The notes under the pieces were generated by a model that did not search any database, was not told the origin of the DNA, and saw only the letters and a list, made by a program, of their open reading frames with translations. From IMG/VR virus record IMGVR_UViG_3300020439_001829, positions 1 through 55,883 of that record: DNA of 55,883 nucleotides; one strand, written 5' to 3'. Positions 36,697 through 42,482 of this stretch are shown in pieces. The stretch comes from a virus (Duplodnaviria; Caudoviricetes). A program made the translations under genes and the position numbers. Each line of letters opens with the position of its first letter. Positions within the stretch are counted from its first letter, which is position 1.

Positions 36697-37777
36697 CTGT
36701 GAATTCTACATCATCAATACCAAGTTTCTCTTTGTATTTTAATATAACCTTATCACAAATGATTTCATATACATACTCTCTTAACTCGTCATTTTCAGTA
36801 ATTAAATCTTCCCAATCTTTTGATAGGAACTTATGGTCTTTACCATTCTGGTCTGTAAGAGTGTACCATGCACCACCTGTCTTTACTAACTTGTGTTCTT
36901 TCAACACAGTCAACCATGCACCATAGTTATCAATACCTCTATCGAAGTACATATCATAATCTGCATGTCGTAAAGGTGGGCCTAAACGATTCTTAACAAT
37001 CTGTGCTCTACATTTCATACCCAATACATTTTTACCTGTATCTTTTATCTGTCCCATGTTCTTTAATCGAATACGAGTAGATGCGTGAAATGGTAATGCC
37101 TTTCCACCACTTGTTGTCCAAGGGTCTCCAAACATCACACCTAATTTTTGTCTTAACTGATTAGTAAACACTAATGCAACTTTTTGTCTACCAATCATTT
37201 GAGTAATCTTTCTCATTGCCTTTGATATAATGATTGCCTTTGCAGTTGCCCAACCATCTTTATCAAAATCAGCTTCTAACTCTACTTTCGTAGTAGCAGC
37301 AGCAAGTGAATCTACAAGAATAGTTACTAACCTATCTTTATCTGATTCTCTTACTTTAGTTACGATTTCTTCAATCGCTTCAAAGATATCTTCTACAGTC
37401 TCTAAATGTAGATACAACATCTTACTCATATCAATTCCAATCACATCCATGAACTCTTGAGAAACAGAAGTCTCAGTATCTATGTATACTGCAACTCCAC
37501 CTTTCTTTTGAGTTTCTGCAAGGATATGAGCACCAAGTAGAGATTTTCCACTTGATTCTAAACCATTGATTTCAGTAATTCTACCAACTGCAATACCACC
37601 ATTAGGTTTATTTGATATTGCCAAATCTAACATAGAACTACCTGTGGATATAAAATCCTTAATATCAGTAGGTGTTGAATCACTTCCGTCAAGAAAGTAT
37701 GCAACTTTTGTATCTTTGAACTTTTTATTTAAACTATCGGCCAGAGTATCGGCCAACACATCGTTTACTGATGCCAT
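36677..37777 (-). CDS. recA: RecA/UvsX recombinase
   Basis: GLESSGKS, IDTE, VDSLAA, NQLR and TTSGGKAL motifs. Confidence 0.93.
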   Translation of the reverse strand: MASVNDVLADTLADSLNKKFKDTKVAYFLDGSDSTPTDIKDFISTGSSMLDLAISNKPNGGIAVGRITEINGLESSGKSLLGAHILAETQKKGGVAVYIDTETSVSQEFMDVIGIDMSKMLYLHLETVEDIFEAIEEIVTKVRESDKDRLVTILVDSLAAATTKVELEADFDKDGWATAKAIIISKAMRKITQMIGRQKVALVFTNQLRQKLGVMFGDPWTTSGGKALPFHASTRIRLKNMGQIKDTGKNVLGMKCRAQIVKNRLGPPLRHADYDMYFDRGIDNYGAWLTVLKEHKLVKTGGAWYTLTDQNGKDHKFLSKDWEDLITENDELREYVYEIICDKVILKYKEKLGIDDVEFTDEVLGD

Positions 37778-37797
37778 CCTAATCTCCTAAGTTAATA

Positions 37798-37824
37798 ATG
37801 GGAGCCACAATATATGACTCCCAT
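37798..37824 (-). terminator. Hairpin terminator or stabiliser after the SSB gene
   Basis: AUGGGAGUCA-N7-UGGCUCCCAU followed by UAUU. Confidence 0.55.
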
Positions 37825-37838
37825 ATATTTGTTATTAT

Positions 37839-38594
37839 CTACGAATTGAATAATTCATCAAAGGCATCACCAGTATTACTTACTGATTTTGCACTTGAGA
37901 TTTCTGAAGCAGAAACACTTTCAGTTTCTTCCTCTTTAGATTCCTCTTCGTTTGGATTTAACCATTCATTCAGAACTTCTGTCAAGTCTTCATAAGATAG
38001 TTCTTGATAGATTTCCTTAATGTCTTGTTGAGTTTTAACTCTTTCAAGAACTTCAGGTTCATCTGAAATAGGTGTTTGATTAGGTTTTACACGAATGTTA
38101 GTTTTTGGAAAACTAGCACCACTTTCTTCAGCAGTGATAAATTCTACAACTACATCTCTTCCATTGACTGGGTCTGTGATATCACCATAGTCTGGGTCTG
38201 CGATAATTGATAATAGTTCTTGATAAACTGTTTTACCAAAGCCCCAAAACTTAACACCTTGAGATTCTTCTCCTCTAACTACTACTGGAGCAAAAGTTCT
38301 CATTTTTGCCTCAAGTTTTCTTGACAACTGATAATCTTCTTTACTACCTGAACCTTTTAGTTTTTGAGCAAACTCTTCGATAGGGTCTGGTCTACCAAAA
38401 GATATTGGTGATAAATAAGAACGGTTGTTCAAATTGTAGTGAAAGAATAATTCAATAAAAGGATTATCTTTATTGAAAGCGTAAGGAACGATTCGAATCT
38501 GAGTTTTACCTGGTTGTGGTTTCCAAAGACTGGAAGTACGATTGTTTGTGGTCTGTAACTGATTTAATCGTTTTTTAATTGCGTTTAAGTCCAT
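37839..38594 (-). CDS. Single-stranded DNA-binding protein (T4 gp32-like)
   Basis: WKP...IRIVP, FHY, FWGFGKTVY and DITDPVNGRD motifs; acidic tail ending AFDELFNS. Confidence 0.88.
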   Translation of the reverse strand: MDLNAIKKRLNQLQTTNNRTSSLWKPQPGKTQIRIVPYAFNKDNPFIELFFHYNLNNRSYLSPISFGRPDPIEEFAQKLKGSGSKEDYQLSRKLEAKMRTFAPVVVRGEESQGVKFWGFGKTVYQELLSIIADPDYGDITDPVNGRDVVVEFITAEESGASFPKTNIRVKPNQTPISDEPEVLERVKTQQDIKEIYQELSYEDLTEVLNEWLNPNEEESKEEETESVSASEISSAKSVSNTGDAFDELFNS

Positions 38595-38658
38595 TATTAA
38601 CTCCTCATTGTTTATGTTTATTTGTCATTTATTATTGGTATCATTTCTCGATACAGTA

Positions 38659-38685
38659 ATAAGTATAACCTTTGTTAGTAAAAAT
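38659..38685 (-). promoter_or_regulatory. Phage-specific promoter motif
   Basis: ATTTT-N15-TACTTAT upstream of ssb. Confidence 0.55.
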
Positions 38686-38712
38686 GTAATCTTTTTTCAT
38701 TATTTTAAAAAT

Positions 38713-38780
38713 AAAAAATGGCCATCTTGTTTTTAAGTTTGTAAGTATAGTGGAAACTAAAAATCGTGTGGCCATTTTTT
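38713..38780 (-). terminator. Long hairpin with U-tract downstream of the candidate ncRNA
   Basis: AAAAAATGGCCA...TGGCCATTTTTT outer stem plus inner TTTTTAGTTT/AAACTTAAAAA pairing, then ATTTTT. Confidence 0.6.
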
Positions 38781-38789
38781 AAATATTTA

Positions 38790-39203
38790 AATTGGAAATC
38801 TTGGGGATGTGAGATTAACGATTACTCACAACTTGAAGCTCTGATTTATTATACCTTGTACCTAACATCTTTCAGTTACGAAAGTGATTCTCAGAATGGT
38901 TAGTTCCATTGAATCGAGTACAACCTCTATGCCATTGCCTTAACTCTCAGAGTTTAGTTTAATTCAGCCATAAAGTGGGATTTCAGTTTTACCCTTACCC
39001 ACAACAAGGTCAACAGAATCGTTCTGTTATTTTTTCTTCAAGTACATTAGATTATTGATGTCTCAACTACCGAAATGATTTACACCTAAGTAGGTTCACC
39101 ACGAACTAATCATGGATTGCTTTATGGGCTTCCGAAGTGTACCCATTATTCAGCCAATCCCATACAGAGTTAATTACTCTCTGTACTTTCCGATTTCTCA
39201 ATT
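38790..39203 (-). ncRNA. Candidate large structured non-coding RNA (~414 nt), family unassigned
   Basis: No ORF of 60 aa or more on either strand. The ends pair, and there are more than 10 nested helices and repeated loop motifs. Promoter and boxA lie upstream, a terminator downstream. Confidence 0.75.
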
Positions 39204-39213
39204 GTCAAAGAAC
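39203..39213 (-). promoter_or_regulatory. boxA-like antitermination element
   Basis: GTTCTTTGACA between the promoter and the ncRNA 5' stem (cf. rrn boxA GCTCTTTAACA). Confidence 0.55.
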
Positions 39214-39227
39214 TTAATCTTACATAT

Positions 39228-39254
39228 ATATATATGTATATAAATTCCCAAAAT
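39228..39254 (-). promoter_or_regulatory. Phage-specific promoter motif
   Basis: ATTTT-N15-TATATAT upstream of the candidate ncRNA. Confidence 0.55.
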
Positions 39255-39264
39255 GTAATTTATT

Positions 39265-40923
39265 TTACATTTTTTTCATTTTTTTTGTTTGATTCTTCTT
39301 TGCTACTTCTTGAACTTTATTTTCATCAATTTGTAACTTTGAAAAATCAACACAAACGAATTCAGTATCGAACTCTTTATTCCATGCTTTGAATTCGTTG
39401 TTGACACTGTCTTTAAATCCACGAGCCACTACTACAATCCTATCGACTTTACCACCTCTATTCATGTAGTATCTAGCAACTTGTGAAATCACTGCAGTAT
39501 CTGCTATCTCATCTTTGATTTCTACTAATGCAACATAATTATCATCATCTTCATAAGTGAAATCAGGTATTGATGAAATATTTTGCTTTTCATGTGATTG
39601 GTTTTCTTCAATATCTTCTACTGAGATATCTTTACCATAAACCAACTTACGAAATGCATCACCTACAATATCATCGATTCTCATCTGTTCATCAAACGCA
39701 TCATGCCATTGTGTTTCCTTGACATCTGATGGTTCAAATCCCTTATGAGTTTCAACCCATGGCTTGATTTGTCTTTTCAACTCATCCTGCCATGCCTTAT
39801 CGAATCCATTCTTTGTAGTGTTTGTTGGAATAACATAATCTTTAGGTACATCTATCTCAACAAATAAACCATTGAGATGTGCCAATCCACCATCTCTCTC
39901 TGATTTCTTTAATTGAATAGTTCCTAACAAAATATCATTCTGATAAACATACAAAGTAGGTATTGCAGATGGTGCGTACTTTCTTGTAATCAGATTACGA
40001 TTTCCTAATGATGTAGTAATCTCTTGTTCAATTGCAGAAAGGTGTCTACCGAACTTTACATCAAAATCGGTAGTCTTTGGAACTAATTGATTATCATCAA
40101 GATAATCTTCATAACCCCACTTTGTTATAACATTCCAAGTGTTATTCTGAGTATCCTCATAACCAACACCAGGTTGTTTCCAAGAATCATCTTGGACATC
40201 TCTATTGTTTAAAAAGAATTCTGCTGGTTGCAATATTCTTTCTAAAGTTTTATTTGATTTGTGTAGTCTCCAAGTAATCTTTACTCTACCACTCTTTAAC
40301 AGACGATTATATCTTGCCTGCATTGAACGATACCAAGTATTCTTAGTAGGATTCCACCACTCTTTAACGAACTTGGATGTGTTTACATTTGTAATCTCAA
40401 CCATAGTTCCATGTGTTGAATTTACAGGTGATAACTCATATTGGAATTGTTCCTCTGTTAAATCAACATCTTCCATTCTTGGAACTTCTCCATCATTATA
40501 AACAACAGAAGATTCGAATCCATCATTTAATCCAATCTCATTGGTAACCACTCTACCTGGTTCACCAAGATAATTAGTAAACTGATTGTATCCTAATCCC
40601 CATCTTGAAGTTCCACCATTTACAATCTTAGTTTTAGAATCTACCGCAGTAGTTACATATAACTTAGTTGCAACAGTATCTTTACTCATACCGATACCAT
40701 TATCATATATCTTAATAGTATCTGGCATTGTAGTTCCATTAGGTGCAAAGAATTCAATCACTACCTCTCTGACATGGTCTTCAGGTAATCTTGGGTCATC
40801 TAATCCAATGAAACAATTATCGACAGCATCTTCAAGGGCATTATATGCAGCTCCATATCCTGCTCCTTTAAATGATTTATAGACATCTGATGTGATAACC
40901 AGATTCTTTTTGTTGATAGCCAT
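39265..40923 (-). CDS. GHKL (MORC-like) ATPase fused to a C-terminal PD-(D/E)XK endonuclease (NucS/Mrr-like)
   Basis: EDAVDN, IYDNGIGM, WGLG and HGTMVEI motifs; C-terminal IPDF...VEIK...QVARY; GGAGG RBS. Confidence 0.75.
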   Translation of the reverse strand: MAINKKNLVITSDVYKSFKGAGYGAAYNALEDAVDNCFIGLDDPRLPEDHVREVVIEFFAPNGTTMPDTIKIYDNGIGMSKDTVATKLYVTTAVDSKTKIVNGGTSRWGLGYNQFTNYLGEPGRVVTNEIGLNDGFESSVVYNDGEVPRMEDVDLTEEQFQYELSPVNSTHGTMVEITNVNTSKFVKEWWNPTKNTWYRSMQARYNRLLKSGRVKITWRLHKSNKTLERILQPAEFFLNNRDVQDDSWKQPGVGYEDTQNNTWNVITKWGYEDYLDDNQLVPKTTDFDVKFGRHLSAIEQEITTSLGNRNLITRKYAPSAIPTLYVYQNDILLGTIQLKKSERDGGLAHLNGLFVEIDVPKDYVIPTNTTKNGFDKAWQDELKRQIKPWVETHKGFEPSDVKETQWHDAFDEQMRIDDIVGDAFRKLVYGKDISVEDIEENQSHEKQNISSIPDFTYEDDDNYVALVEIKDEIADTAVISQVARYYMNRGGKVDRIVVVARGFKDSVNNEFKAWNKEFDTEFVCVDFSKLQIDENKVQEVAKKNQTKKMKKM

Positions 40924-41549: not shown

Positions 41550-41740
41550 AGAATGGTATGTCCCCTCTTGTTAATCTTTTCTACTTTAATTAATAAATCT
41601 TGTACTAAATTTTGAGCCTCATCCATGTAGTATAAACCATCAGAGTTTGCCTGATATTCAGGTGTAGTATTATACGCGTTCGTACACGAATCGTGTATAT
41701 TTCTTAGTTTATCTACTATTTCTTGTAATGTTAATTTCAT
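41546..41740 (-). CDS. Hypothetical protein
   Basis: 64 aa; GGAG RBS; ATGA coupling to the next gene. Confidence 0.55.
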   Translation of the reverse strand: MKLTLQEIVDKLRNIHDSCTNAYNTTPEYQANSDGLYYMDEAQNLVQDLLIKVEKINKRGHTIL

Positions 41741-41868
41741 TATGCTACTCCAAAATTATTTGTTAATAAACAAGCCTCCATCATTGTAATATTTGGTTTT
41801 TCATTTATCACCCAATCTTCGATGAAATCAATCATCAATAATACTGTATCAGGTGATATATGATACAT
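41740..41868 (-). CDS. Small hypothetical protein (42 aa)
   Basis: Manual ORF MYHISPDTVLLMIDFIEDW...; TAATG overlap with the next gene. Confidence 0.4.
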   Translation of the reverse strand: MYHISPDTVLLMIDFIEDWVINEKPNITMMEACLLTNNFGVA

Positions 41869-41887
41869 TAAATCCCAATACGGGTCA

Positions 41888-42088
41888 TTAGAACTCGTCA
41901 TATATTCCATCCATCAAATCCTCGAACTCATCTACTGGATTACCACCAAACATATCATCCAAATTATCAAAATCTGAATTCTTCAAACCCATATCTTCAA
42001 GGGCCTTTACTTTTACCCCATACCCAACATCGGTTTTAGAAACTCGTTTCTTGTTAGTTTTTTTAACTACTTTGTTGTTTGTTTTCAC
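41888..42088 (-). CDS. Hypothetical early protein (basic N-terminus, acidic C-terminus)
   Basis: GTG start with AGGAG RBS, downstream of a sigma70-like promoter. Confidence 0.55.
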   Translation of the reverse strand: MKTNNKVVKKTNKKRVSKTDVGYGVKVKALEDMGLKNSDFDNLDDMFGGNPVDEFEDLMDGIYDEF

Positions 42089-42122
42089 GAAACACTCCTA
42101 TTCTTATTAAAAATCATATCTA

Positions 42123-42152
42123 AATATAAGGCCAAAATATAATACGAGTCAA
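42123..42152 (-). promoter_or_regulatory. Sigma70-like early promoter
   Basis: TTGACT-N18-TATATT. Confidence 0.65.
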
Positions 42153-42160
42153 GTACTTTT

Positions 42161-42265
42161 TTACTTTTTTTCCAACTTTATTATACATGGTATACACAAA
42201 TCTGGATAAAATATAGTTCCAACGAACTCTGTAGTTTTACAATGTGTACACATTTTCTTAGCCAC
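42161..42265 (-). CDS. Tiny zinc-finger protein (34 aa)
   Basis: Manual ORF (M)AKKMCTHCKTTEFVGTIFYPDLCIPCIIKLEKK with two CxxC motifs. Confidence 0.4.
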   Translation of the reverse strand: MAKKMCTHCKTTEFVGTIFYPDLCIPCIIKLEKK

Positions 42266-42482
42266 TTCTTTCTACTTTATCAATCATAACATCATTTACT
42301 GAATATGGTCTTTCAGAAAACTGAAAGTTCTTGTTGATAGCTTTTGGTATTTGTGAAGCCACCTCATTTGCAAACCATTCAGCATCTTTGTTTTCATTGT
42401 TTAGAGATTTTTCACCATAACCTTGGTCTGGTACATATATCTCAATACAAGCATTTACATAATATCTTACATCTTTAGCCAT
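42258..42482 (-). CDS. Hypothetical early protein
   Basis: 74 aa; AAGGAG RBS. Confidence 0.55.
   Translation of the reverse strand: MAKDVRYYVNACIEIYVPDQGYGEKSLNNENKDAEWFANEVASQIPKAINKNFQFSERPYSVNDVMIDKVERSG

Follow-up and report, generated by a model that had tools for sequence, protein, structure and literature searches.

Since 2010 the manA RNA motif (Rfam RF01745) has remained an orphan "riboswitch candidate", and it is classed as a cis-regulatory riboswitch candidate both in Rfam and in the accessible text of the original paper (Weinberg et al. 2010, Genome Biol 11:R31, PMC2864571). In the literature that we searched, made up of the accessible text of papers, the motif appears only in that paper and in a second one (PMC9964418), which, in its available part, places the manA RNA of S-CREM1 in an array of transfer RNAs (tRNAs) and non-coding RNAs; no description of nested or tandem manA RNAs, or of the ends or abundance of a manA transcript, was found in the same texts. 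Here we analyze a stretch of 55,883 bases from an IMG/VR virus (record IMGVR_UViG_3300020439_001829, completeness estimate 27%, G+C content 32%), called the window hereafter in its full length, that carries on its minus strand, between a 552-amino-acid (aa) open reading frame (ORF) and the gene for a gp32-like single-strand DNA-binding protein, an RNA of about 385 nucleotides (nt) in which one manA core is inserted into another. On the evidence presented below we consider it probable that this is a free-standing, abundant and end-processed phage RNA of the manA family, with its fold duplicated within itself, that acts in trans.

Results

In the entire window, manA is the only Rfam family to reach its gathering score. 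The match, on the minus strand like every feature described below, covers the inner core and the 3' hairpin at 38804-39003 (58.8 bits and E = 1.7e-12, where the gathering score is 55.2), and a second, sub-threshold match at 38972-39185 (39.1 bits; E = 2.9e-10 and 5.5e-9) covers the outer core, with the central hairpin serving as its 3' hairpin. When 38500-39400 was scanned at E values up to 10, nothing besides manA came out better than E = 0.37. An earlier note on this DNA, made from the letters alone, had proposed either a compact relative of the GOLLD and ROOL RNAs or a new class, to be checked by an Rfam scan that would include RNase P, tmRNA and introns as well; the scan returned manA above its cut-off and none of those, and both the proposed kinship and the proposed novelty have to be given up. 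The manA model scores 55.3-73 bits, and so above its cut-off, in 14 of 20 homologous loci and below it in the other six. Judged by these matches and by the consensus fold, the RNA is a member of a known orphan family, manA, to which its nested double form adds a new architecture, found in a phage lineage that is new as well.

The core RNA (38802-39186, about 385 nt), delimited by consensus fold, covariation and metatranscriptome contigs of four studies, opens with a 5' hairpin (39186-39162), followed by a closing stem GGGAU/AUCCC (39161-39157 with 38808-38804) that encloses both cores and is 100% paired in the alignment, where 10 of the 79 distinct rows have A:U in place of G:C as a compensatory change. 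It corresponds to the stem that the original manA authors labelled "pseudoknot?" (PMC2864571, in its accessible text), and the alignment of 90 sequences adds covariation for it. Within the closing stem lie module A (39156-39119), an internal-loop module of the type CUGAAUAA...UAAGG, and junction A (39112-39049), made of three stems with a near-invariant GUGGUG loop. They are followed by a long-range stem (39043-39036 with 38838-38831) that shows double changes in six of its eight pairs and aligns to the 5' strand of the penultimate stem of the manA model. In other words, it is the penultimate stem of the outer unit, and its tip hairpin (39028-39012), a local hairpin, is aligned by the Rfam model to its own inner hairpin. 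Enclosed by this stem are the inner closing stem (39009-39005 with 38858-38854), the central hairpin common to both manA matches (39002-38975), module B (38970-38937), which is a second module of the CUGAAUAA...UAAGG type, and junction B (38934-38863), again with three stems and with a GUUGUA loop. The 3' hairpin (38829-38809) ends the outer unit. The two manA units are hence nested and not side by side, the second core being inserted in the penultimate stem, and the RNA does not match the manA architecture of one core, about 190-215 nt long, whose penultimate hairpin is simple. Two repeats had been pointed out in the earlier note, namely UGGCUGAAU at 39156-39148 and 38970-38962, and hairpins of the form GUGrGUAA...AAUCyCAC at 39002-38975 and 38829-38809; both were found where they had been placed, and they recur because the manA core is internally duplicated.

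Homologues were collected by using gp32 as a query against viral contigs, which gave at least 595 relatives of which 80 were kept, and by searching for the pattern of the central hairpin, which gave at least 119 further stretches. Among the matches listed, all IMG/VR viral sequences, 133 full-length copies of the RNA were present, 90 of them distinct; these 90 align across 700 nt with 57-95% identity to the window, and they form the alignment (A1) used here, in which pairs were counted over 79 distinct rows. A blastn search in distant mode with the gap that holds the RNA against 50,697 phage records gave no match.

At minimum free energy the 465-nt stretch reaches -113.7 kcal/mol (z = -2.76; one of 100 shuffled sequences folds equally well), and the 385-nt core gives z = -2.05 (three of 100), so that the RNA does fold better than its shuffled controls, by a modest margin. 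Covariation is what settles the structure, where folding energy alone is only suggestive. RNAalifold returned 95 consensus pairs, 64 of which carry compensatory double changes; 98.0% of the cells at these positions are paired, compared with 81.3% in shuffled alignments (none of 500 reaching 98.0%) and with 35.7-44.9% when partners are slid; double-change cells number 1372 against 115-185 with slid partners, and the covariation score is 0.534 against 0.080-0.105. This covariation in 90 homologues is decisive, and the structured RNA is real and conserved.

The earlier note had listed 11 helices, whose complementary segments do lie at the coordinates given for them, and eight are supported by the homologues. 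Six of these have the support of both consensus fold and covariation (UACAGAG/CUCUGUA, AUGGG/CCCAU, GAUUC/GAAUC, AAUGG/CCAUU, CUUUC/GAAAG and the long-range helix ACUUGAAG/CUUCAAGU); AACAGAA/UUCUGUU forms in all 79 distinct sequences, with stems that vary, and the stem joining the ends is backed by the flanks, whose duplex reaches z < -2 in 67 sequences out of 90 and is formed from differing sequences. The remaining three did not hold: GGAUUG/CAAUCC has no compensatory pair and is out of register, GGGAU having its partner in AUCCC at 38808-38804; just 53.3% of cells are paired in AUGAUU/AAUCAU, and just 77.7% in CUUUAUG/CAUAGAG. Separately, RNAalifold proposes a helix between 39021-39017 and 38846-38841 that competes with the better-supported local hairpin at 39028-39012. 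The segment CGAUU (39017-39021), comprising the loop and the first bases of the stem of that hairpin, can pair with a near-invariant AAAUCnG (38841-38846), one position of this pairing changes from C:G to U:A in 21 of 79 rows, and the pairing may be a loop pseudoknot.

Expression was looked for in public metatranscriptomes. A fraction of 0.49-0.77 of the sampled words of 38700-39300 occurs in each of 14 RNA runs, which come from five studies and some of which have only 4 million letters. Logan contigs from four RNA runs, each from a different study, were placed on 37600-40400, and the parts that they left uncovered (beyond 39685, and most of the flanks in runs X3, X5 and X11) were excluded from the evidence. 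In all four studies, the contigs of the abundant RNA are confined to about 38800-39184. Run X1 has RNA contigs with depths of 1235.6 (38805-39001) and 930.6 (39070-39184), next to a gp32 contig with a depth of 12.2 and a contig reaching into the upstream ORF (39160-39685) with a depth of 18.8. The RNA is thus about 50-100 times deeper than the neighbouring genes, and since the excess is at least 50-fold, carry-over of DNA does not explain it. In run X11 a single contig of 384 nt is exactly 38800-39183. The contigs of X3 (38798-39169) and X5 (38802-39144) both run on, at 38798 and 38802 respectively, into extra letters that we take to be Illumina adapter; with the last letters of the adapter discounted, the insert begins at 38802/38803 in both. 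From these contigs, the abundant species appears to have about 383-385 nt, from about 39184/39186, close to the start of the 5' hairpin, to about 38802/38803 in ...AUCCCC(A). Neither the trailer strand of the outermost stem nor the hairpin downstream of it is part of this species; the leader strand, too, lies outside the abundant contigs. The contig ends (38798-38805 and 39144-39184) fall inside the leader-trailer stem, and contigs cannot prove ends. A unit of about 414 nt had been predicted; a discrete and abundant RNA is indeed seen, with contigs at the boundaries of the core, but the species in the contigs is shorter by the end stem.

The regions on either side of the core look like those of a separate transcription unit. 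A promoter-like motif, P1, consisting of ATTACATTTT, about 13 nt and an A/T-rich TATA box (39222-39260), stands immediately 3' of the stop codon of the 552-aa ORF and is conserved across homologues; it would serve as a promoter. On the coding strand, copies of ATTACATTTT occur at 39257 (ahead of the RNA), 38688 (gp32) and 41052 (552-aa ORF), and a degenerate form of the motif is found five times in the window, against a mean of 1.35 and a maximum of 7 in shuffles. An earlier version of the pattern with fixed spacing, which this motif superseded, had not been enriched (12 against 8.65 expected), and in a consensus promoter and terminator scan sigma-70 sites appeared at chance level only. The motif is often followed by a hairpin of the type GUAUC...GAUAC, also in L076, L073, L064 and L040. 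P2, a second promoter-like motif with a hairpin at 38654-38638, occupies 38638-38693 ahead of the gp32 ribosome-binding site. Between P1 and the core, a covarying hairpin of at least 5 base pairs (bp) precedes, in 79 of 90 homologues, a boxA-like box GUUCUUUGACA (39203-39213) that is invariant or near-invariant in the 90 sequences. Against the gamma-proteobacterial boxA consensus GYTCTTTAANA, which is given in the accessible text of PMC5725501 and may not be that of the host, the box of the window agrees at 10 of 11 positions and that of most homologues at 9 of 11; in a metagenome-assembled genome (MAG) labelled Pelagibacter, a boxA-like pattern gave six matches, as many as in the reversed control. 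The box is followed by the leader strand of the outermost stem, AAUUGAGAAAUC (39192-39203), which pairs with 38800-38790 at -9.6 kcal/mol, its trailer strand GAUUUCCAAUU (38790-38800) lying beyond the 3' end of the RNA contigs.

Downstream of the trailer is a long terminator-like hairpin (38707-38780), with a stem formed by 38780-38770 and 38723-38713, a conserved interior and a U run. A perfect stem of at least 5 bp, an interior of 38-55 nt and then at least five T are present in 83 of the 90 homologues, and the base of the hairpin covaries, with 23 distinct stem sequences; the interior, which can pair into a second stem, contains TTTWAGTWTCCM in 66 of 90. The consensus scan reports no terminator in the window, and it missed this one because the loop is longer than the limit of 8 that the scan applies. 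With its G+C-containing stem and U run, the element has the features of an intrinsic terminator and is a predicted terminator, atypical in its conserved interior of 38-55 nt. The promoter motif, boxA-like box, U-tailed hairpin and separate promoter for the single-strand DNA-binding protein gene that had been described around the RNA are in fact all there as sequence elements.

The distribution of the RNA among related loci was assessed with a profile built from the alignment. It is found in all loci where gp32 is at least 81% identical and enough upstream DNA is available, with the exception of L015 (gp32 87% identical), which is devoid of exactly the RNA and shows the order P1, hairpin at once, P2; the hairpin kept there directly 3' of the first promoter-like motif would give a tiny transcript. 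Where gp32 is 70-75% identical, the profile finds the RNA only in L069 and L071. In more distant relatives gp32 is preceded by just one promoter-like motif, and both the RNA and the hairpin are absent. The RNA is therefore present or absent as a discrete module; the promoter-like motif looks duplicated around it, relatives that lack the RNA carrying one copy, and RNA, hairpin and duplicated promoter look like one inserted unit. As for individual loci, L169 is without the terminator-like hairpin, the RNA being followed by a promoter-like motif and then gp32, and L181, L095 and L161 have an additional small ORF 3' of the RNA.

Nearly all genes of the window are on the minus strand and close-packed. 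The gap that holds the RNA (38595-39264, 670 b) contains ORFs of 31-45 aa at most, which bears out the earlier statement that none reaches 60 aa. The gp32-like gene 3' of it (37839-38594; Pfam gp32, E = 9.2e-13, and PHROG ssDNA-binding families) is followed by genes for a RecA/UvsX-like protein and a 5'-3' exonuclease (Pfam, PHROG), and its nearest relatives are in Microcystis phage Mel-JY01 (52%) and, after it, in Flavobacterium phages (44%) rather than in T4-like cyanophages. In all 90 distinct homologues gp32 lies downstream of the RNA on the same strand. The 552-aa ORF upstream (39265-40923) is without a family at default Pfam and PHROG thresholds; it had been called a GHKL gene, and its sole match, to HATPase_c_3 (E = 0.045), stays below threshold with 14.2 bits where 25 are required. 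No tRNA gene was found in the window. Another stretch with no ORF of 90 aa or more (41550-42474, 925 b) holds a run of small ORFs of 64, 56, 66 and 74 aa; it was rejected as a second RNA locus, as the small ORFs fill it and an Rfam match is absent. The pattern of the central hairpin also gave five matches in MAG contigs (L201-L205), from bins labelled Candidatus Pelagibacter, Campylobacter (three) and Firmicutes. These five contigs are probably low-GC phage DNA mis-binned into bacterial bins, and for this reason we rejected their labels as evidence on the host.

For comparison we turned to canonical manA RNAs. That of cyanophage S-CREM1 (OP535465; locus L200, 10132-10643) scores 96.6 bits over 215 nt, a tRNA-Leu ending 1 nt before its 5' hairpin and a tRNA-Asn starting 4 nt after its closing stem; a blastn search with it against the 50,697 phage records returned only itself. 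Among viral contigs, 81 distinct loci (L222-L451) have the canonical core motif and enough flanking sequence, some of them, including high-GC contigs, being chance matches. A same-strand tRNA ends 73-79 nt before the core motif, that is, 1-3 nt before the 5' hairpin, in 44 of the 81; a tRNA lies within 160 nt downstream in 21, and 20 have tRNAs on both sides. In other loci, a promoter similar to TTGACA/TATAAT ends just before the 5' hairpin. The predicted ends of the canonical RNAs coincide with those suggested here, which fits a released, free-standing RNA. These counts are given over all 81 loci because a stricter manA filter, which kept 36 of them, lost many of the tRNA-flanked ones. A previous search of viral contigs with the pattern TGTGRGTAN{5,9}AATCYCACC, since superseded, had given 119 stretches, five of which went past a manA-like filter and four of which were apparently true; manA-II (PMC11109978), also considered as a relative, is an unrelated motif.

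Discussion

Our results suggest that the RNA at 38802-39186 is made as a unit of its own and then set free, in line with the proposal in the earlier note of a standalone non-coding RNA: by its look, with P1, boxA-like box, closing stem, U-tailed hairpin and P2, it has its own transcription unit, and it is discrete and abundant. Transcription would start at the promoter-like P1. The leader hairpin and the boxA-like box might load Nus-type factors and shield about 0.5 kb of untranslated RNA from Rho, as in ribosomal RNA (rRNA) operons, after which leader-trailer pairing would join the ends and nucleases would trim the transcript to the closing stem, leaving the core of about 385 nt. The long U-tailed hairpin would end the unit, and gp32 would be read mainly from P2. 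The mature RNA could then act in trans as a folded particle in which two manA cores form a covalent pseudo-dimer, with a small molecule or a factor of host or phage as its partner.

Several points weigh against this interpretation. The signal of folding energy over shuffled sequences is modest and by itself only suggestive. All expression data are Logan contigs, from which neither starts nor ends nor levels can be proved; divergence between strains may break unitigs, at a boundary that coincides with the edges of the core; adapter letters occur at the 3' end only, with none to mark the 5' end, and the comparison of depths covers RNA runs only. The boxA-like box deviates from the E. coli-type consensus at one of the positions changed in a double mutant that has lost function there, according to the accessible part of PMC5725501, and the 16S leaders of the genus Pelagibacter carry a box that is similar to the one in the phage and not identical (11 of 15 positions, ungapped). 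Some canonical manA copies stand directly before ORFs (L360), as the riboswitch proposal expects. Finally, the constant position of the RNA upstream of gp32 on the same strand, together with L169, where the hairpin is missing, makes read-through and a role in cis possible.

The alternative that survives best, and that we nonetheless deem unlikely, is a nested manA riboswitch of the tandem-aptamer kind, whose two cores would sense a metabolite and control read-through of the hairpin and U tract into gp32, with a sharper response than one core would give. Such a reading agrees with the cis-regulatory class that Rfam and the available text of PMC2864571 assign to manA, with the location of the RNA ahead of gp32 in all homologues and of a hairpin with a U run 3' of it in 83 of 90, and with the canonical copies that directly precede ORFs, and doubled aptamers are known in other classes. 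If the RNA were the 5' untranslated region (UTR) of gp32, however, it would be separated from the gene by both the U-tailed hairpin and P2, the promoter-like motif that gp32 has for itself, and the contigs stop before the hairpin is reached. With its end at about 38802, the abundant RNA stops some 20 nt short of the hairpin and about 85 nt short of the U run, and is thus not a terminated leader. L015 keeps the hairpin and both promoters in the absence of the RNA, and by inspection the 3' part of the RNA has no conserved alternative pairing with the hairpin, the spacer between them being variable. Canonical manA RNAs, moreover, are often flanked by tRNAs on one side or both. Contexts compatible with a 5' UTR do exist among canonical copies, and the copies that abut tRNAs or follow a promoter sit uneasily with the "Cis-reg" typing in Rfam.

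Less likely again, the RNA could be an element that serves, in cis, the processing or stability of a long replication-gene transcript; the folded block would be cut out of mRNAs extending from the 552-aa gene into gp32, or would protect them, and would have no function once released. The low-depth contig at 39160-39685 does join the upstream ORF to the 5' hairpin, L169 has no terminator, and the leader-trailer stem suggests processing by nucleases, all of which such an element would account for. An intricate fold of about 385 nt with near-invariant loops, and with two copies of a fold that is conserved in distant cyanophages, nevertheless exceeds what processing needs; the released piece accumulates and its flanks do not, and canonical copies occur in tRNA arrays with no neighbouring mRNAs. 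A replication-origin transcript that primes DNA synthesis through an R-loop deserves hardly any credence, being favoured by location only, in a replication and recombination block (gp32, RecA/UvsX-like protein, 5'-3' exonuclease), and being disfavoured because covariation shows selection on RNA base pairs (64 of them compensatory) rather than on DNA sequence, besides the accumulation of the RNA as a free species and the occurrence of its family in tRNA arrays.

If the RNA is indeed free-standing and trans-acting, as we think probable, the conclusion might extend to the family. We propose only tentatively, and with the balance tipping slightly against it, that RNAs of the manA class are not cis-acting riboswitches but abundant, end-processed and free-standing phage RNAs, released in cyanomyoviruses from tRNA arrays or made from a consensus promoter of their own, and made in the lineage studied here from a miniature unit resembling an rRNA operon in its 5' hairpin, boxA-like box and leader-trailer stem, with the fold doubled into a covalent pseudo-dimer; this would imply that manA works as a dimer or particle, acting in trans on a factor of host or phage. 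The natural nested doubling does suggest that two manA cores work together, and gene context and metatranscriptomes together point to a discrete, very abundant RNA with its ends at the closing stem, the same ends being predicted for the tRNA-flanked canonical copies. If the design of the leader were confirmed, this locus would be a compact phage case of boxA-type protection combined with a leader-trailer helix for a long non-coding RNA. The core of 383-385 nt is, in any case, a well-defined construct for probing, ligand screens and cryo-electron microscopy.

Compared with the systems described so far, the RNA shares with manA (RF01745) the 5' hairpin, the closing stem, the CUGAAUAA...UAAGG module, the three-stem junction with its GUGGUG loop, the penultimate hairpin and the 3' hairpin GUGRGUA...AAUCYCAC, as well as a marine, phage-borne origin, and its inner half scores above the Rfam cut-off. 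It departs from canonical manA in having a second core in the penultimate stem, with one closing stem that spans both and a length of about 385 instead of about 190-215 nt, in belonging to an uncultured lineage whose gp32 is not near that of T4-like cyanophages, and in its flanks, which are a promoter-like motif, a boxA-like box, a leader-trailer stem and a hairpin, and not tRNAs or an ORF. With GOLLD and ROOL it has in common that it is a large, intricately folded, phage-borne and apparently highly expressed RNA, but it is smaller, and neither family is matched at gathering score anywhere in the window or, at E up to 10, in 38500-39400. GOLLD and ROOL RNAs are often located near tRNAs, as is canonical manA. 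The tRNA gene cluster of phage T4 likewise encodes stable RNAs of unassigned function that are co-located with tRNAs and released by tRNA processing; they may offer a lead for the manA RNA of S-CREM1, which would be released in the same way. Tandem riboswitch aptamers, such as those for glycine cited in the accessible part of PMC2864571, also have two homologous folds in one RNA, but here the cores are nested, the RNA showed no expression platform, and the terminator hairpin is not part of the abundant species. The leaders of rRNA operons, where the available text of PMC10250234 gives the order boxB-boxA-boxC with a leader-trailer helix, differ in that the stem of the phage RNA has just 11-12 bp and its box agrees with the gamma-proteobacterial consensus at 9-10 of 11 positions; the likeness lies in a hairpin followed by a boxA-like box and by a leader strand that pairs with the trailer, the apparent mature ends falling inside the helix so formed.

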